Below, piece by piece: positions 1-7,549 of a stretch of DNA of 64,000 nucleotides. The stretch comes from an uncultured Nitrosomonadaceae bacterium. Its GTDB lineage: Bacteria; Chloroflexota; Anaerolineae; Anaerolineales; UBA11858. Location of the stretch: NCBI GenBank assembly GCA_964195965.1, contig CAXMRF010000003.1:121-64120 (forward strand). The letters are read 5' to 3'. How positions within the stretch are numbered: the stretch's first letter is position 1; the number at the start of each line of letters is the position of its first letter. The notes beneath the pieces are model-generated. The model was not told where the DNA came from, did not search any database, and saw only the letters and a list, made by a program, of their open reading frames with translations. The position numbers were made by a program, and so were the translations under genes.

Positions 1-20
1 TTGTATATCAAATAGTGATA

Positions 21-46
21 AAACGATTATATAATTATAATCGTTT
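21..46. repeat. perfect 11-bp inverted repeat / AT-rich hairpin
   Basis: Arms aaacgattata (21-31) and tataatcgttt (36-46) are exact reverse complements around a 4-nt loop. It lies in AT-rich non-coding DNA upstream of the TIR gene. No U-tract; function not inferable. Confidence 0.5.
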
Positions 47-298
47 CTACTCCTGGAGGGGGCCAGTACAGAATAGCTCTGTTTTAGATTAAGAATAAAT
101 AACATATTAACTCACAAGGGTTGGATTATATCTTCAGAGAGCCTTATCACCCAGGATTTTGATGATTATTCAAATTATTGAATTGATATGGATGCCAAAG
201 AGGCAGTGCGGGGAGATTGACCTAGAAAATCCTTGTCAATTAACCTTATTCATTTTATAGTTAGAAGGGATTTCTTCAGCAAAGGTACAACTTATTAA

Positions 299-2167
299 AT
301 GACAGAGAATATCTTTCTCAGCTACAGAAGGGATGATTCGCGAGGGTATACGAACGCGATTTATACCGTGCTGGAATATCACTTTGACAGTGATCAGATA
401 TTCATGGATGTCGACACACTTATTCCCGGATCTAATTTTGTTCAATCCCTGGAAGATGCTGTTGAAGCGTGCGACATTTTTTTGGCAATAATCGGCTTGC
501 GCTGGGAAAGTATTGAAGATAAAAAAGGCGTTCGAAGGCTTGAAAACCCCGAGGATTTTGTTCGCATTGAAGTCGCTCATGCCCTGAAACGAGGCATCCC
601 AGTTATCCCGGTGCTGGTCGATGGAGCCGAGATGCCTTCCTCTGAAAATTTACCAGATAACCTTAAAGATCTTGCTTACCGGCATGCCTTTTCGATCGGT
701 GACCATATGCGATCGGATGTGCAGCGATTGATCAAGGTATTAGAAAAAACTTTTGAGCGGCTGGAACGAGAACGGGTTGAACAAGAGCAAAAAGAATCAG
801 AGCTTTCAGCAAAACAAGAAGCTGAACAAAAGGCAAAAGCGCAGGCCGAAGCGGATCTAAAAGAAAAAGAGCAGGCTGAGACAGAGAAGAAAGCTGCAGA
901 AGAAAAAGAACAGCTGGCCCTTCAAAAAGCAGAACTGGAACGCCAGGAACAGGAAAAAATTGAAGCGGACAGAAAAGCCAGGGAGCAAGCAGGAGCAGAT
1001 CTAAAAGCTAAAGAGCAGGCGGAGGCAGACAGGAAGGTCAGGGAAAAAGCGGATCAAAAAGCCATGGCACAGGCCGAAGCGGATCGCCAGGCAGTAGAAA
1101 AAAAGGCAAAAAGGGAAGCGGATAAAAAAGCTAAAATAAAGGCCAAAGCGGATAGAAAAGCGCAGCAAGTGGAAAAAGCTGGTTCATCTGCACCATCTGC
1201 TTTGAAAAAGATACCTGTTTGGGTGTGGCCGGTCGCTGGAGTGGTATTAACTCTGATTGGTTATGGCCTATTTGGTGGGTTGTCGCCAACGTCACCGGAA
1301 GAACCAGGAGAAACTGAAGTAAGCCTAGCTGTCGCAGATTATACAAATTCACCAACAAGCGAGGCAATCTCCAGCACCCCCATTCCTGAAGCAACAATAA
1401 TACCTACGGCAGTTCTTACCGCAGTGCCCATTGTAGAACCTCCCGCTGGGGCTGAAATAAGCAATTTGAAGGATGGCGCGGTGATGGTTTATGTGCCTTC
1501 AGGTGATTTTATTATGGGCAGCGATAATGGAGAATCCAACGAAAGTCCCGCTCATTCAGTGTACCTGGATGGGTTCTGGATCTATAAAACCGAAATGACC
1601 AATGCCATGTACACATTGTGCGTTGAAGCCGGTGGCTGTATTCACAACGATTGGCAACTTGATATTACAGATTTGACCTATGCAAATCACCCGGTAGTAG
1701 GCATCAGCTGGAAGCAAGCTGATACCTATTGCCGCTGGGCGGAAAGCCAGCTACCAACTGAGGCGGAATGGGAAAAGGCTGCCCGTGGAACCGACGGCCG
1801 TATGTATCCCTGGGGCGAAGATTTTATTATAAGCTATGCAAATTATGCTGACACATATCACGATCCTGGAGGAGAAGGCACTGTCAAGGTTGGCAGTTAT
1901 CCGGAGGGAGCCAGCCCCTATGGTGTGCTGGATATGGCTGGAAATGTAACGGAATATGTGGCGGATTGGTATGCGGCAGGTTATTACGCAATATCTCAGT
2001 ACGAAAACCCTGCTGGTCCTGAAGACGGTCTTGAGCGAGTGGTTCGGGGAGGCTCTTTTAACAACTCATCGAGTAATCTTGTGGTTACCAAACGCAGCTC
2101 AATATTTCCAAGGGAAATACAAACTAATCAATTCGGTTTTCGTTGTGCGATTTCATATCTGCCCTAG
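299..2167 (+). CDS. TIR domain - coiled coil - single TM helix - FGE-sulfatase (SUMF1-like) fold protein
   Basis: 622-aa ORF. N-terminal IFLSYRRDD...FVRIEVAHALKRGIPVIPVLV fits the bacterial TIR_2 pattern, including the conserved Glu. Residues ~150-295 are a K/E/A/Q-rich coiled coil. One hydrophobic helix, IPVWVWPVAGVVLTLIGYGLFGG. C-terminal MVYVPSGDFIMGS, HPVVGISWKQADTYCRW, LPTEAEWEKAARG and RVVRGGSF are FGE-sulfatase fold motifs. Confidence 0.85.
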   Translation: MTENIFLSYRRDDSRGYTNAIYTVLEYHFDSDQIFMDVDTLIPGSNFVQSLEDAVEACDIFLAIIGLRWESIEDKKGVRRLENPEDFVRIEVAHALKRGIPVIPVLVDGAEMPSSENLPDNLKDLAYRHAFSIGDHMRSDVQRLIKVLEKTFERLERERVEQEQKESELSAKQEAEQKAKAQAEADLKEKEQAETEKKAAEEKEQLALQKAELERQEQEKIEADRKAREQAGADLKAKEQAEADRKVREKADQKAMAQAEADRQAVEKKAKREADKKAKIKAKADRKAQQVEKAGSSAPSALKKIPVWVWPVAGVVLTLIGYGLFGGLSPTSPEEPGETEVSLAVADYTNSPTSEAISSTPIPEATIIPTAVLTAVPIVEPPAGAEISNLKDGAVMVYVPSGDFIMGSDNGESNESPAHSVYLDGFWIYKTEMTNAMYTLCVEAGGCIHNDWQLDITDLTYANHPVVGISWKQADTYCRWAESQLPTEAEWEKAARGTDGRMYPWGEDFIISYANYADTYHDPGGEGTVKVGSYPEGASPYGVLDMAGNVTEYVADWYAAGYYAISQYENPAGPEDGLERVVRGGSFNNSSSNLVVTKRSSIFPREIQTNQFGFRCAISYLP

Positions 2168-2286
2168 ATTGTGTGTTTAGATAGTGTTTTTGGGATATTC
2201 ATTCTTTGCCCTAAATCGACCAATGGGCTGGACAAAAAGCCCACCTTCCCTTAAAATGTCCCTTCGTATATAAGAACTTGATTCAT

Positions 2287-4814: not shown

Positions 4815-6128
4815 ATGGCCATTCGAACATTAATTATGGGCGCCGCCGGGCGCGATTTTCATAATTTTAACGTTTTCTTCAGAGAAAACAAAGATTATGA
4901 AGTGGTTGCTTTTACAGCCACGCAGATTCCCAATATTGAAGATCGGAAATATCCGGCAGCGCTTTCTGGTGAGAACTATCCTGAAGGCATTCCTATTTAT
5001 CCTGAATCCGAGTTAATCCCTCTGATTAATAAACATCAGGTTGAACAGGTGATCTTTGCCTACAGTGATGTTACTCATGAATATGTAATGCATAAAGCTT
5101 CTGAAGTGCTGGCAGCTGGAGCGGATTTCAGGTTAATGGGATTAAATACCACCCAGGTGAAATCCACAAAACCAGTGGTTTCTGTCTGCGCAGTCCGGAC
5201 TGGCAGTGGAAAAAGCCAAACCACTCGACGTGTGGCCGAAATCCTCAAGGGTTTTGGGAAAAAAGTAGCAGTGATCCGACACCCCATGCCGTATGGCGAT
5301 TTGGCCCAACAAGCGGTTCAGCGATTTGGTGAACTGTCAGACCTCGATAAACACGAATGCACCATTGAAGAACGGGAAGAATACGAACCCCATATTGTCC
5401 AGGATATACTTGTTTTTGCAGGTGTAGATTATGAAGCAATTCTCCGGGAAGCCGAGAAAGAAGCTGATGTCATTCTCTGGGACGGCGGTAATAATGACCT
5501 GTCCTTTTACAAATCAGATTTTCAAATCGTCGTGGCTGATCCGCTTCGTCCTGGCCATGAAACATCCTATCATCCGGGAGAGGCAAATGCCCGGACAGCG
5601 GATGTATTTGTGATTAATAAAGTTGACTCAGCCAATTCGGAAGACGTGCTCTATTTGCACGATTCTCTCCGGAAATTGGCTCCCGATGCGATTATCCTGG
5701 AAGGCGCTTCACCGCTCTTCGTTGAGGATCCCTCCCAAATTAAAGGGAAACGTGTATTGGTGGTGGAAGATGGCCCCACACTGACTCATGGTGGCATGGC
5801 TTACGGCGCTGGCTGGGTTGCTGCCAGGAGATTTGGCGCAGCAGAGATCGTTGATCCACGGCCATTTGCTGTGGGTACCATTCTGGCAACTTATCAGAAA
5901 TATCCCACCACTGGCGATGTGCTGCCTGCTATGGGTTATGGTGACGCGCAAATTAAAGAATTGGAACAAACGATTAATAACGCCGAGGTGGACCTGGTCA
6001 TTATTGGCACCCCGATTGATCTGTCCCGGTTGATGAAGATCAATAAACCCACCCAGCGGGTTCGTTATGAACTGCAAATTATCGGCCAGCCTACTCTTGA
6101 GGATTTGCTGAAAGAAAAATTCTCATAA
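4815..6128 (+). CDS. COG2403-type P-loop protein (annotated in databases as GTPase / cyclic 2,3-diphosphoglycerate synthetase-like)
   Basis: 437 aa. N-terminal LIMGAAGRDFHNFNVFF and Walker-A-like VRTGSGKSQTT, as I remember for this family. AGGAG RBS 8 nt upstream of the ATG. Confidence 0.6.
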   Translation: MAIRTLIMGAAGRDFHNFNVFFRENKDYEVVAFTATQIPNIEDRKYPAALSGENYPEGIPIYPESELIPLINKHQVEQVIFAYSDVTHEYVMHKASEVLAAGADFRLMGLNTTQVKSTKPVVSVCAVRTGSGKSQTTRRVAEILKGFGKKVAVIRHPMPYGDLAQQAVQRFGELSDLDKHECTIEEREEYEPHIVQDILVFAGVDYEAILREAEKEADVILWDGGNNDLSFYKSDFQIVVADPLRPGHETSYHPGEANARTADVFVINKVDSANSEDVLYLHDSLRKLAPDAIILEGASPLFVEDPSQIKGKRVLVVEDGPTLTHGGMAYGAGWVAARRFGAAEIVDPRPFAVGTILATYQKYPTTGDVLPAMGYGDAQIKELEQTINNAEVDLVIIGTPIDLSRLMKINKPTQRVRYELQIIGQPTLEDLLKEKFS

Positions 6129-6265: not shown

Positions 6266-7549
6266 ATGCCGATATTAGACTGGTCATCTAAAACTGAAAA
6301 GCTTCTACCCGATGGTAACCTGATCACTGAGTCAGTGATTAACCCTGGCTCAGACGATAAGAGCTCCGTTACCATTGAGAATCGATTGATTCAGGGTGAT
6401 AACCTGCGGGTGATGAGCGCCCTGTTGGAAGATTATGAGGGCAAGATTGATCTGATTTATGTCGATCCTCCATTTTTCACCAACAAGGGATATGCTGCCC
6501 GGGTAGGACGTGGAGAAGACTCCCGCAAACCGGAAGAATGGCAGCTCGCTGAGGGTTATCACGATGAATGGGAAGACCTGGATTCTTATCTGGATATGCT
6601 TCACCCCAGATTGAGATTAATGCATCGTTTGCTGGCACCAACCGGTTCCCTTTATTTGCATCTGGATTGGCATGCCAATTCTTATGCCAGGATCTTATTG
6701 GATGAAATCTTCGGGTACGAGAATTTTCGGAATGAAATCGTCTGGACCTATCACGGACCCTCGCCCATTCGAAGTGCATTTAATCGCAAACACGATACGA
6801 TCCTGTTTTATACCAAAACAAATCAATATGTATTTAATGTGGATGAGGTTCGCATTCCTTACGCCTCAAATACTATAGAAACCTTTAAATCCTCCAAAAA
6901 AGCTGGATTTGGGAAAGTGCCCGATTTGGAAAGGGGTAAAGTCCCCGAGGATTGGTGGTATTTCCCGGTTGTTGCCAGGCTGCATAATGAACGCACCGGC
7001 TACCCAACCCAGAAACCGGAGCGATTGTTGGAGAGAATTATCCTTGCCTCAACCAATCCGGGAGACCTGGTGGTTGATTTCTTTGGCGGCGCGGGCACAA
7101 CGGGCGCTGTGGCTGCCCGTTTGAACAGGCGGTTTATTCTTTCTGATTTGCAGAGCAGGGCGATAACAACCGCCCGCTCCCGGCTGATACTTGACCGGCA
7201 GGGATCCGGGGATGATGACCCAGGCAGCAGGGGAAAAGCTTTTCCAATTCAGATGCAGCGGGAAGAACATTTAAAAACGAATCCTTATCTGAAGCTTGCT
7301 GATTTTGATGTGCAGGGAATGGAGTTAAAAGATAATCTGATTTCTTTGCCAGCTGATCTTGTGTCCCGGGTGGATTACTGGGAAGTGGATCCGGATTGGC
7401 AGGGGGATATTTATCGCAGTCAAGTCCAGGGGGTCAGACCCTGGCGGAAAGGGGATTTGCCAGCTTCATTGATCCTGCCGGAAAACCGGGGGAAGGTTTG
7501 TGTGCGGATTGTGCTGGTAAGCGGGGAACAAATCCAGGAAGTCCTTTAA
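6266..7549 (+). CDS. beta-class N6-adenine/N4-cytosine DNA methyltransferase with an unassigned ~120-aa C-terminal tail
   Basis: 427 aa. Motif IV DLIYVDPPF comes before motif I (YPTQKPERLLERIILASTNPGDLVVDFFGGAGTTG), which is the beta-class order. NRLIQGDNLRVM is a typical N-terminus. Confidence 0.85.
   Translation: MPILDWSSKTEKLLPDGNLITESVINPGSDDKSSVTIENRLIQGDNLRVMSALLEDYEGKIDLIYVDPPFFTNKGYAARVGRGEDSRKPEEWQLAEGYHDEWEDLDSYLDMLHPRLRLMHRLLAPTGSLYLHLDWHANSYARILLDEIFGYENFRNEIVWTYHGPSPIRSAFNRKHDTILFYTKTNQYVFNVDEVRIPYASNTIETFKSSKKAGFGKVPDLERGKVPEDWWYFPVVARLHNERTGYPTQKPERLLERIILASTNPGDLVVDFFGGAGTTGAVAARLNRRFILSDLQSRAITTARSRLILDRQGSGDDDPGSRGKAFPIQMQREEHLKTNPYLKLADFDVQGMELKDNLISLPADLVSRVDYWEVDPDWQGDIYRSQVQGVRPWRKGDLPASLILPENRGKVCVRIVLVSGEQIQEVL

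Follow-up and report, generated by a model that had tools for sequence, protein, structure and literature searches.

The locus studied here raises the question of what a TIR domain does in a bacterium when a single membrane span joins it to a formylglycine-generating-enzyme (FGE) fold. The gene in question lies at the edge of a 64,000-nt stretch of DNA (the window) from an Anaerolineales (Chloroflexota) bacterium. The bacterial TIR systems known to us sense infection from within the cell. A membrane span and an ectodomain like those of Toll-like receptors seem to be absent from bacterial TIR systems, according to work on TIR defence in E. coli (PMC11350192). However, a large uncharacterised bacterial family does have the TIR-TM-ectodomain layout, which by our own count is common to 62 of the 120 best protein clusters; the wider TIR subtype, clustered at 50% identity, has about 33,000 representatives. 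Full-text literature searches returned no paper on TIR-TM-FGE receptors or on host RyR-domain effectors. The TIR-FGE gene may be part of an immune-type signalling system, as yet undescribed, that works from the outside in. If the ectodomain truly controls the TIR domain, the proteins of this family would be bacterial cell-surface pattern-recognition receptors coupled to NAD+-derived signalling.

An earlier note on this DNA, made from the letters alone, had read the protein as a solitary receptor-like sensor. Its interpretation stands as regards the binding ectodomain, a TIR domain that looks catalytically competent and the topology, and falls as regards a coiled coil, a "cysteine-less" ectodomain and a gene that "stands alone". 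On the points at which it could be contradicted by computation, namely the TIR match, the alignment of the Glu, the topology and a setting in sulfatase operons, nothing contradicting it was found.

Architecture and predicted topology

The five parts that had been described as joined in one ORF were recovered in a single ORF of 622 aa (Table 1), the second of them as a charged helix. The full-length AlphaFold2 model of its product has a mean pLDDT of 75.

Table 1. Features of the TIR-FGE gene and its borders, numbered from the first letter of the window
Feature	Position	Strand	Basis or remark
Conserved upstream region	182..298	+	shared with orthologous locus L002
Whole gene	299..2167	+	ATG start, 622 aa plus stop; TIR, charged helix, TM, linker, FGE fold
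SARM1-type TIR domain, predicted cytoplasmic, aa 1-145	299..733	+	Pfam, phmmer, AlphaFold2, Foldseek
E91 codon, predicted catalytic glutamate	569..571	+	aligned with SARM1 E642; invariant
Charged A/E/K/Q helix, predicted cytoplasmic, aa 146-298	734..1192	+	AlphaFold2, composition, degenerate repeats
Single TM helix, predicted signal anchor, aa 305-327	1211..1279	+	hydropathy, charge bias
S/T/P/A-rich linker, predicted extracytoplasmic, aa 328-384	1280..1450	+	composition; predicted disordered
FGE-sulfatase (C-type-lectin-like) fold, predicted extracytoplasmic, aa 385-622	1451..2164	+	Pfam, phmmer, Foldseek
Hypervariable loop after RGGS, aa 587-612	2057..2134	+	column entropy; predicted ligand-binding surface
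Junction of strain-variable segment	2168..2198	.	L083 homology resumes at 2199

The segment between the TIR domain and the membrane is modelled by AlphaFold2 as one unbroken helix (aa 137-278). A canonical coiled coil is unsupported for this K/E/A/Q segment, in which only 11% of the residues are hydrophobic and the best heptad a/d occupancy is 0.16; the coiled-coil stalk of about 150 aa proposed earlier has to be replaced by what looks like a charged single helix. Pairs of opposite charge at i/i+3,4 occur at 0.34 per residue versus 0.26 +/- 0.03 in shuffled sequences. The helix is composed of degenerate 10-aa (30-nt) repeats, covering approximately positions 809-1172 of the DNA, in which TRF finds no exact tandem repeat. 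It has a weak match to TolA, and its length varies strongly between homologues. In composition and model, the segment is similar to an ER/K single alpha-helix or to domain II of TolA.

The protein has no N-terminal signal peptide, and one hydrophobic helix had been noted. Indeed, residues ~305-327 form the sole segment with a Kyte-Doolittle score above 1.6 (maximum 1.84). More K+R residues precede this segment than follow it in 30 of the 34 homologues, the family mean being 3.6 in the 15 aa before the span versus 0.97 after it. By the positive-inside rule, hydropathy and charge bias support an N-in/C-out topology that places the TIR domain inside and the FGE domain outside, as had been supposed. 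The sister TIR proteins agree with this orientation, since they carry LysM, PG_binding_1, SH3_3, TonB_C, Lectin_C and similar extracytoplasmic domains. The S/T/P-rich composition of the linker is likewise borne out; it is modelled at pLDDT <50, and neither its sequence nor its length is conserved between homologues.

The layout is similar to that of the animal Toll-like and IL-1 receptors, which also span the membrane once, bind their ligands outside the cell and carry a TIR domain in the cytoplasm, and which are presumed to act by ligand-induced proximity. Unlike them, the protein has a predicted type II topology with the N-terminal TIR inside, and it has neither LRR (none is found by Pfam) nor Ig domains; its TIR is of the SARM1 type and not of the adaptor type of Toll-like receptors. 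The resemblance is an architectural analogy, not orthology.

A strain-variable gene and its RyR-domain neighbours in relatives

The window consists of core housekeeping DNA with no recognisable defence island. PADLOC and Pfam searches of 42 window ORFs for a Thoeris, CBASS or Pycsar partner yielded housekeeping look-alikes only (DprA scored as ShosA/PsyrA, a dGTPase, and dynamin-like proteins scored as LeoA). The gene rpsT lies downstream of the TIR-FGE gene and no ThsA-like gene appears in the lists of families for the rest of the window, both as reported earlier; among the families listed, neither the window nor the 19 TIR-FGE loci surveyed contain a known ThsA module. No paralogue of the gene was detected by tblastn in the 64 kb, and Rfam recognised no structured RNA in the 5' region, its only matches being three tRNAs elsewhere in the window. 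A phage origin was also considered and rejected, as 2.9 million viral contigs gave five partial matches and none with the full architecture.

The AT-rich non-coding DNA described on one side of the gene does exist, but it extends for merely 298 nt to the window edge. Within it, homology to an orthologous locus begins 117 nt 5' of the ATG (window 182-2169 to L002 9877-11814, 69% identity by blastn). A sigma-70-like -35/-10 pair is found at 233-261 (TTGTCA-17-TATAGT), the count of such sites in the region being not above chance. On the other side, window 2199-2950 matches positions 180-930 of the close relative L083 at 96% identity. In place of the TIR-FGE gene, L083 has rnpB beside rpsT, its positions 1-123 encoding, on the minus strand, the 5' portion of RNase P RNA. 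Across related genomes the slot upstream of rpsT holds four different contents, and the TIR-FGE gene behaves as an accessory, strain-variable gene. No direct or inverted repeats flank it that would mark the boundaries of a mobile element.

That the gene seems solitary is due to the window edge, for its neighbours come into view in relatives. Orthologues at 61-87% identity adjoin a conserved pair of RyR-domain genes (loci L002, L093, L106, L108 and L151), and further single-pass TIR genes lie beside the same pair in these contigs. The RyR pair does not appear in the window, which begins 298 nt upstream of the gene, and its presence in the source organism is inferred from this synteny. Both members of the pair are host-encoded proteins of about 600-900 aa. 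The first is a channel-like protein with two TM helices, TrkA_N/RCK and a RyR domain; the second is a soluble RyR-domain protein with a large uncharacterised N-terminal region. Their RyR domains match RyR Repeat12 with E 1e-20 to 1e-30 and keep the H-x2-W motif, and in one member the catalytic-dyad Asp is retained as well.

The association with TIR genes recurs. At least one TIR gene flanks the RyR pair in five of the six genomes inspected. One genome, L097, has the pair with no TIR neighbour. Every flanking TIR protein examined has one TM helix directly after the TIR domain. The association is statistically strong in 67 metagenome loci, where the 197 kb lying no more than 3 kb from the RyR pair contain 38 TIR ORFs and the 184 kb farther out contain 2, an approximately 18-fold difference in density, and 25 of the 51 evaluable loci had a TIR ORF within 1.5 kb. 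The C-terminal domains of the receptors in these arrays are an FGE fold, C-type lectin, WD40, LVIVD or unassigned, and the RyR clusters also contain STAND NTPase fragments. Most of the TIR domains beside the pair are of another subtype, 22-24% identical to that of the query.

Outside this lineage the picture is different. In 80 loci of other phyla with the same TIR subtype, 17 of them TIR-FGE loci, no RyR neighbour was found; it follows that the TIR-RyR partnership is confined to this lineage, works in trans, or reflects nothing more than a variable hot spot beside rnpB. TIR-FGE genes do form tandem arrays of paralogues, which recur in 7 of the 19 loci, and among the families listed for these loci no other neighbour family is recurrent. 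A defence-island setting for TIR-FGE genes in general was rejected, as the neighbours in the 19 loci are mostly metabolic.

To our knowledge, RyR (PF02026) domains have until now been reported only in phage proteins that counteract Thoeris. In a 2026 preprint, RyR-domain proteins of phages are shown to bind or hydrolyse the 2'cADPR and 3'cADPR that TIR domains make (PMC13232231). Like these phage RyDEP/RyR proteins, the neighbours in the orthologous loci have genuine RyR domains that include the H-x2-W motif. They differ in that the host RyR domains are fused to a 2-TM + TrkA_N/RCK part or to a large N-terminal region.

The TIR domain and the proposed signalling

The TIR_2-type N-terminus with a conserved Glu, which the earlier note had recognised, is confirmed by a Pfam TIR_2 match at aa 5-131 (E 1.2e-9; 39.1 bits, gathering cut-off 28) and by the alignment of E91 (FVRIEVAHAL) with SARM1 E642 (WVHKEIVTAL). 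E91 is invariant in both homologue alignments (A1 and A4; n=34 and n=37). The best phmmer matches in the PDB are SARM1 TIR domains (E 1.4e-5). When a TIR-only AlphaFold2 model (pLDDT 90) was compared with the PDB by Foldseek, the top 34 matches were all SARM1/TIR-1 (best E 1.2e-8, TM up to 0.85), separated from other TIRs by an approximately 10^4-fold gap in E-value; sequence identity in these structural alignments is only about 20%. A search with the family profile matched, among TIR structures, SARM1/TIR-1 alone (6e-10). Elsewhere the protein has only weak, partial ThsB matches in PADLOC (E 1e-7 and 0.008) and a weak ThcB4 match in NCBIfam.

The family invariants F6, Y9, R10, R11, D37, G44, F47, D86, F87 and E91 align with SARM1 F565, Y568, R569, R570, D594, G601, F603, D637, W638 and E642, the SARM1 numbers being our own count from E642. 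Of these, Y568, R569, R570, D594, G601, F603 and W638 are taken to be residues of the NAD+ pocket and BB loop. The position of W638 is occupied by the invariant F87; the BB-loop Gly is kept, while the position of BB-loop K597 is not conserved (T40 here). Thus, in sequence and predicted structure, the TIR domain looks catalytically competent and SARM1-like. SARM1 and TIR-1 are the closest solved TIRs both by sequence and by fold, with the catalytic Glu and aligned pocket residues kept. On the other hand, the present protein lacks their ARM and SAM domains, and its TIR is N-terminal and membrane-tethered, so that regulation here would be by the ectodomain and not by an NMN/NAD+-sensing ARM domain.

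Another parallel is offered by Thoeris, in which ThsB TIR sensors act with a ThsA-type effector that binds a cADPR isomer made by the TIR. As in Thoeris, a TIR domain with a catalytic Glu is found, often in several TIR genes beside one constant effector locus, together with a putative effector domain that recognises an ADPR-derived signal. In contrast to Thoeris, the TIR proteins here are single-pass membrane proteins with large predicted extracytoplasmic domains, and the candidate readers carry RyR (PF02026), have not been described among Thoeris effectors and have no SIR2/SLOG, Macro or other known ThsA module. Some Thoeris effectors are themselves membrane proteins (10.64898/2025.12.03.692087).

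The following course of events is proposed. The ectodomain would bind an extracellular or cell-surface ligand, which could be a glycan or protein of an invader, of a neighbour or of the cell's own wall. The charged helix, of about 150 residues and variable in length, would hold the TIR domain away from the membrane. TIR NADases need an oligomer for activity. Given a stalk that is long and variable and forms no tight coiled coil, ligand binding would most likely cluster the receptors and unite their TIR domains into an oligomer, with no conformational relay. The activated TIR would cleave NAD+, probably yielding a cyclic-ADPR-type product. As orthologous loci suggest, the gene would be one of a variable set of single-pass TIR receptor genes arrayed around the RyR pair. 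The proteins of that pair may detect the TIR product, much as ThsA detects that of ThsB, or may degrade it. The sensing cell in the filament would then stop growing or die.

On the basis of sequence comparison and structural models, we give an even chance to a Thoeris-like system in which the TIR protein senses from the outside in and RyR-domain proteins act as readers. The fuller pathway, in which the Anaerolineales would combine arrays of TIR receptors, a cyclic-ADPR-type messenger and host RyR readers including an RCK-gated 2-TM channel look-alike, is offered tentatively, as possible rather than probable. The recurrent RyR adjacency provides a concrete candidate partner. If this is true, recognition of cADPR isomers by RyR domains would extend from phage counter-defence to host signalling, and the pathway would parallel in prokaryotes the SARM1/CD38 - cADPR - ryanodine-receptor axis of animals.

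The protein could instead be a self-contained suicide or abortive effector, whose ligand-induced TIR assembly depletes NAD+ and halts the sensing cell with no partner involved. SARM1, to which the TIR domain is closest among solved structures, kills in this manner, by NAD+ depletion, once activated. Most TIR-FGE loci elsewhere have no conserved non-paralogous neighbour, and the families listed for the 62 kb downstream of the gene include no partner. E. coli is protected from phages by TIR systems that consist of a single gene, one of which includes a TM segment (PMC11350192). Nevertheless, in its own lineage the gene repeatedly adjoins RyR-domain genes, beside which TIR ORFs are strongly enriched as given above, and cyclic ADPR signals made by TIRs are recognised by RyR domains (PMC13232231); an effector of this solitary kind appears unlikely. 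Because the orthologues adjoin the RyR pair, the output is as likely to be a nucleotide signal for partner proteins as autonomous NAD+ depletion.

The same architecture would also suit a physiological, non-immune sensor of the cell's own wall or sheath, of filament neighbours or of an environmental polymer, with the TIR domain tuning development or dormancy through NAD+ or nucleotide signalling, alongside kinase-TM-FGE paralogues. Many Chloroflexota proteins carry FGE domains, 43-51% identical to the one studied here, fused across a TM helix to eukaryote-like Ser/Thr kinases; the wall-binding domains LysM, PG_binding_1, SH3_3 and TonB_C of the sister TIR proteins and the housekeeping surroundings without a defence-island signal point in the same direction. 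However, the presence and absence of the gene between near-identical strains, the hypervariable loop predicted to bind the ligand, the tandem arrays of paralogues and the STAND NTPase fragments of the RyR clusters fit conflict systems better than core physiology, and we consider a purely physiological role quite unlikely.

The TIR domain might, finally, be a non-enzymatic adaptor or scaffold that recruits a cytoplasmic partner, as in animal Toll-like receptors; many TIRs serve in assembly, and a conserved Glu does not always go together with activity (PMC7075850). Such a role is very improbable here, as the family invariants line up with the SARM1 pocket residues, the BB-loop Gly being kept though the second residue of that loop, K597, is not, and the family profile matches no solved TIRs besides SARM1/TIR-1.

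An FGE fold as a predicted binding module

The C-terminal FGE-sulfatase fold proposed earlier was readily confirmed by Pfam (aa 395-617, E 1.1e-50). The ectodomain matches FGEs at ~1e-31 in phmmer, and its Foldseek matches are FGE, PvdO, pFGE, TvpA and PorK, with E ~1e-18 against bacterial and human FGE. In true FGEs a Cys pair after the RGGS motif binds copper (C336/C341 of the human enzyme). The present protein reads RGGSFNNSSSNLVV in this region and lacks both copper-site Cys, in agreement with the earlier reading; the pair is absent from all 34 aligned homologues too. The ectodomain was nonetheless wrongly called cysteine-less, as C441, C447, C478 and C616 are present. C478 and C616 are invariant in the homologue alignment and align with the two Cys that form the structural disulfide of human FGE.

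The segment after RGGS sits where the FGE catalytic loop would be, and it is the most variable part of the protein among those compared: column entropy reaches 2.66 bits in this loop, against 1.48 for the FGE core and 0.94 for the TIR domain, and identity of the loop to even the nearest homologues is 15-38%. Its position presumably equals that of the variable region of lectin-fold proteins diversified by diversity-generating retroelements (DGR). The hypervariable loop is the predicted ligand-binding surface. The ectodomain as a non-catalytic, predicted binding module, and not a maturase, is supported by the family-wide absence of the Cys pair, by the lack of a DinB/iron domain and by the absence of sulfatases from the recurrent neighbour families listed for 19 loci. 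The same fold without the Cys pair has extracytoplasmic binding or structural roles in pFGE/SUMF2, PvdO, PorK/GldK and TvpA, none of which is fused to a TIR domain or held by an N-terminal signal-anchor helix.

FGS domains have been proposed to bind invaders; they are fused to TIR, caspase and kinase and are enriched in multicellular bacteria (PMC7159879, PMC8195603). The FGS conflict systems (Kaur, Burroughs, Iyer, Aravind; eLife 2020, 2021) are described as intracellular, centred on STAND NTPases or vWA-MoxR, and often DGR-linked (PMC7159879, PMC8195603). The present protein shares with them a C-terminal non-catalytic FGE/C-type-lectin fold after an N-terminal effector, here the TIR domain, an order of domains set out as a rule in PMC7159879. 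It differs in the TM helix, in the predicted location of the FGS domain outside the cell and in that no DGR was found; there is no NTPase in the 622-aa polypeptide or next to the gene in the window. That the loop is itself a DGR target, rewritten by reverse transcriptase from a template repeat, is suggested by its Asn/Ser-rich composition (NNSSSN), its hypervariability between homologues and the DGR linkage of conflict-system FGS domains (PMC7159879, PMC8195603). This is hardly credible, as no template-like repeat of the 3' end was found in the 64-kb window or in 17 related loci, and no reverse transcriptase is among the families listed for the window and the neighbour loci.

The weakest reading takes the ectodomain for a real enzyme that matures sulfatases or makes sulfoxides, as the source names "SUMF1/EgtB/PvdO family nonheme iron enzyme" and "formylglycine-generating enzyme" have it, and despite the strong Pfam match it can practically be dismissed in view of the Cys pair missing in all 34 homologues. 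The NCBIfam EgtB/SenA matches cover only the C-terminal part of the models (67-68 bits, far under cut-offs of 360-420), and the N-terminal DinB-like domain with its iron-binding His triad, typical of EgtB/OvsA/SenA, is absent, the TIR domain standing in its place. Sulfatase genes are no consistent neighbour, as only paralogues recur across the 19 loci: sulfatase is not among the top 25 recurrent families listed for their 126 neighbour proteins, nor among the top 25 families listed for the window. A widespread annotation is thereby corrected, in which proteins without the catalytic residues are named FGE or "nonheme iron enzyme".

The modules at the two ends of the protein vary separately. The homologue P0012 shares 85% of the TIR domain with the query and 39% of the FGE domain. 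In P0118, which matches 61% of the query at 54%, BNR/Sortilin domains replace the FGE domain. Similar FGE domains are also fused to caspase and to a trypsin-like protease. The 622-aa product itself is identical to the one on record as P0001, and a protein identical to P0001 was found only on a Logan contig of 2,290 nt.

Architecture and topology of the TIR-FGE protein

The TIR-FGE gene encodes 622 aa from an ATG start. The five parts that an earlier note had described within this single reading frame are all there by the ORF list, Pfam, hydropathy and composition: a TIR_2 domain (aa 5-131; 39.1 bits against a cut-off of 28, E 1.2e-9), an A/E/K/Q-rich segment (aa 146-298), one segment of membrane-helix-grade hydrophobicity (aa ~305-327), an S/T/P/A-rich stretch with predicted disorder, and an FGE-sulfatase domain (FGE, formylglycine-generating enzyme; aa 395-617, E 1.1e-50). 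NCBIfam gave only partial matches to the protein, all far below threshold (GldK, SenA, EgtB, PvdO, TolA), and PADLOC only weak ThsB-like ones.

The best PDB-sequence match of the TIR domain in phmmer is SARM1 TIR (E 1.4e-5), and in this alignment E91, noticed earlier as a conserved Glu, falls on SARM1 E642. The AlphaFold2 model of the TIR alone has a pLDDT of 90. When this model was compared with the PDB by Foldseek, the top 34 matches were all SARM1 or C. elegans TIR-1 (best E 1.2e-8, highest TM-score 0.85); matches to further TIRs, SPARTA and AbTir among them, began at ~1e-4. SARM1/TIR-1 was also the sole match (6e-10) of a 78-member family profile among all solved TIR structures. The family-invariant residues F6, Y9, R10, R11, D37, G44, F47, D86, F87 and E91 correspond, in the same order, to F565, Y568, R569, R570, D594, G601, F603, D637, W638 and E642 of SARM1, numbered by our own count starting at E642. 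From these matches and the aligned invariants, the domain is predicted to be able to hydrolyse or cyclise NAD+. The subtype counts 33,474 representatives of 50%-identity clusters at E <= 1e-3 and 3,951 at E <= 1e-30. Eight of 78 proteins with the same TIR subtype are uracil-DNA-glycosylase-superfamily fusions (loci L023, L039, L058, L060 and others) of ~364 aa, apparently cytoplasmic.

The A/E/K/Q segment had been read as a coiled coil, which its composition does not bear out: hydrophobic residues make up 11% and heptad a/d occupancy is at best 0.16. Opposite-charge pairs at i/i+3 and i/i+4 amount to 0.34 per residue, above the 0.26 +/- 0.03 of shuffles, and AlphaFold2 draws aa 137-278 as one unbroken helix. 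The coding DNA consists of degenerate 30-nt repeats. The segment resembles an ER/K-type single helix, or else a spacer like TolA domain II, a canonical coiled coil being unlikely.

The window protein lacks an N-terminal signal peptide. In the family, K+R average 3.6 in the 15 residues before the membrane helix versus 0.97 in the 15 after it, and 30 of 34 homologues carry more of them before than after. The domains behind the helix in proteins of the same TIR subtype or the same layout include LysM, PG_binding_1, TonB_C, SH3_3, PD40, BNR/Sortilin and C-type lectin. Charge bias and these domains lead to the conclusion of a predicted N-in/C-out topology with the TIR inside and the FGE domain outside, in line with the earlier placement on opposite membrane sides. 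By a crude hydropathy scan and our own count, roughly three in four of 80 genome loci carrying the subtype encode a hydrophobic segment after the TIR.

The ectodomain aligns with bacterial and human FGE (~1e-31), and its structural matches are FGE, PvdO, pFGE, TvpA and PorK. It had been called cysteine-less; it contains four cysteines (441, 447, 478, 616). The FGE-type Cys pair after RGGS is indeed absent, both here and in 34/34 aligned homologues. C478 and C616, both invariant across the family, align with the human FGE cysteines of the AYC and GFRC motifs, the presumed partners of the C218-C365 disulfide; conservation of such a structural disulfide is in keeping with an extracytoplasmic site. 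The loop after RGGS, standing in place of the FGE catalytic loop, has a column entropy of 2.66 bits versus 1.48 in the FGE core and 0.94 in the TIR, and just 15-38% identity, closest homologues included. Because it sits at what is presumably the variable region of lectin-fold proteins diversified by diversity-generating retroelements (DGRs), the loop is a likely, putative binding surface. Neither the window nor 17 related loci contain a DGR template repeat.

A variable slot beside rpsT and the RyR gene pair

The TIR-FGE gene is preceded in the window by 298 nt only. It is followed by rpsT, argS, a gene for a 437-aa protein, an N6/N4 DNA methylase, a response regulator, amidohydrolase, HD and SurE, and further 3' by three tRNAs, ffh and rpsP, then RNA polymerase, gyrase, topoisomerase I, DprA and similar genes. 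The order from rpsT to SurE is syntenic in relatives. Upstream of rpsT, the place of the TIR-FGE gene is taken by RNase P RNA in L083, a contig with 96% DNA identity to the window, whose homology restarts 32 nt past the TIR-FGE stop codon; by two RyR-domain genes and then rnpB in the relatives L086/L087 (ArgRS 81%); and by a DeoR/PTS block in L084/L085 (ArgRS 74%). Judged from these differing contents, the TIR-FGE gene varies in presence between strains. The slot is marked by rnpB: the TIR-FGE gene lies on opposite sides of it in contigs L093 and L002, and no such gene stands between rnpB and rpsT in L083 or L086/L087. Several small 'ORFs' (44-48 aa) called at the slot are really rnpB sequence. 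The breaks of three contigs fall within or close to rnpB, a pattern suggestive of assemblies with strain heterogeneity.

The only other source of an identical protein is a 2,290-nt contig. Window positions 1-29 differ from positions 1-41 of L001, a contig with the identical gene, and identity begins at window position 30; the mismatch again points to varying sequence or a break in the assembly immediately upstream. In one relative, an IS200-type Y1 transposase lies between rpsT and argS.

Coordinates of the TIR-FGE gene and of features in the window and compared contigs
Feature	Sequence	Positions	Strand
TIR-FGE ORF	window	299..2167	+
437-aa protein	window	4815-6128	+
N6/N4 DNA methylase	window	6266-7549	+
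rnpB	L083	1-123	-
rnpB	L087	5947-6353	-
rnpB	L093	9244-9652	-
rnpB	L002	11814-12218	-
RyR pair	L093	5350-8991 (5350-7101 and 7183-8991)	-
RyR pair	L002	5752-9423	-
RyR pair	L087	2044-5758	-
RyR pair	L096	4692-9785	+
RyR pair	L098	4710-9812	+
Y1 transposase (IS200 type)	L084	6272-6676	
Y1 transposase (IS200 type)	L085	2495-2899	
1,224-aa multi-TM protein, FGE fold at C-terminus	L010	6992-10666	
TIR protein, 387 aa	L010	14672-15832	
TIR-LysM protein, 482 aa	L010	18347-19792	

The gene had been described as standing alone. This holds in that the window has no ThsA-like gene; it does not hold for orthologues, which adjoin a pair of RyR-domain genes (TrkA_N-RyR and a soluble RyR protein). Orthologue P0013 shares a 120-kb contig with argS in the order TIR-WD40, TrkA_N-RyR, RyR, rnpB, TIR-FGE, rpe ... 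deoR, rpsT, and P0004 is placed between the same pair and rnpB. In more distant genomes, the pair is flanked by TIR-463 aa, two TIR-WD40 and TIR-LVIVD (L096), or by TIR-398 aa and TIR-C-type-lectin, together with a STAND NTPase bearing a RyR domain (L098). Each flanking TIR protein examined has a single hydrophobic helix directly behind the TIR. One genome (L097) has the pair with no TIR neighbour.

The link was tested by scanning metagenome contigs with a TrkA_N-RyR alignment, which gave 67 loci, and by running HMMs for two TIR subtypes and the RyR domain on all their ORFs. TIR ORFs numbered 38 across the 197 kb lying no more than 3 kb from the pair versus 2 across the 184 kb farther away, and 25 of 51 evaluable loci had one within 1.5 kb. 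On contigs L151 (87% over aa 1-152), L106 (83% over aa 1-72) and L108 (61% over aa 1-367), the pair likewise has a close homologue of the window protein next to it. No RyR neighbour was present at 80 loci of other phyla. Homologues of the pair number only 370 at E <= 1e-20, and it appears restricted to Anaerolineales-type metagenome contigs. For the window gene itself, the link is inferred from synteny in relatives, as the window shows no RyR pair; on this model, rnpB and the pair would be expected some 1-3 kb or less upstream of window position 1.

Candidate readers and proposed signalling

Thoeris TIRs make 2'cADPR and 3'cADPR, which phage RyR-domain (PF02026) proteins either hydrolyse or bind tightly (PMC13232231, a May 2026 preprint). 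H75, W78, H100 and D117 take part, and animal RyR Repeat12 conserves these residues. The host proteins carry genuine RyR domains (E 1e-20 to 1e-30), in which the motif positions were assigned from their spacing (H, then W at +3, H at +25 and D at +42). H and W are retained in the TrkA_N-RyR protein, which has Asn at both +25 and +42 and looks like a ligand binder; a 602-aa RyR protein, retaining H, W and D, is a possible hydrolase. The N-terminus of the former has two membrane helices around a conserved loop, TLGLISLNTG, then a KTN/RCK NAD-binding domain, a layout reminiscent of RCK-gated channels. The second protein of the pair has 600-900 aa with the RyR domain at the C-terminus, and its long versions have a weak P-loop/STAND-like region. 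Some genomes carry an ORF of 186-215 aa between the two genes, one with a faint sub-threshold SLOG (YpsA) match.

By homology and gene context, a ligand would dock on the variable ectodomain loop. The anatomy suggests that receptor clustering would follow, and not a rigid conformational relay, because the stalk is long and variable in length. Homology and gene context likewise suggest that the TIR domains would then assemble and cleave or cyclise NAD+. An alternative is plain NAD+ depletion with no partner. With the RyR-domain proteins as readers, on the same grounds, the product would be bound or degraded by them, altering the membrane or metabolic state. The proposed system would fall within TIR-based immune-type signalling. 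TIR-FGS fusions, FGS being the same fold, are noted in comparative-genomic studies of conflict systems, which describe them as intracellular, NTPase-centred and often DGR-linked (PMC7159879, PMC8195603). Domain censuses list kinase-FGE and caspase-FGE fusions with membrane helices. The literature searched contained no description of transmembrane TIR-FGE receptors, nor of host RyR-domain proteins acting as partners of TIR proteins.

Family breadth and neighbouring genes

By our own count, TIR_2 is combined with FGE-sulfatase in 62 of the 120 best protein clusters; about 32 have a Ser/Thr kinase with FGE, one a caspase and one a trypsin-like protease. Modules are swapped between members, as sequence comparison indicates: P0012 is 85% identical to the window protein in the TIR and 39% in the FGE domain, and P0118 matches at 54% across 61% of the query, with BNR/Sortilin domains replacing FGE. 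Those members that have names come from Anaerolineae or Chloroflexota MAGs, and the host, judged by an ArgRS 81-84% identical to named MAG proteins, is an Anaerolineales bacterium. Annotations such as 'SUMF1/EgtB/PvdO family nonheme iron enzyme' and 'formylglycine-generating enzyme' are misleading on function. The Anaerolinea contig L010 offers an example of a tandem paralogue array, with three TIR/FGE-type genes in 13 kb.

The 437-aa protein has no Pfam match; all syntenic relatives keep it beside argS. Their synteny block also includes the N6/N4 DNA methylase in all relatives (L084-L087, L097), with a version shortened to 159 aa in L083. This gene has the look of a core orphan methylase, not of a defence-island marker. 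A longer methylase homologue lies directly 5' of the large TM/FGE protein in L010. Window positions 14000-64000 hold two DUF2298 membrane proteins, two PMT_2 glycosyltransferases, two UbiA prenyltransferases, LytR_cpsA_psr and sugar-nucleotide enzymes, a set that suggests a cell-envelope glycosylation cluster.
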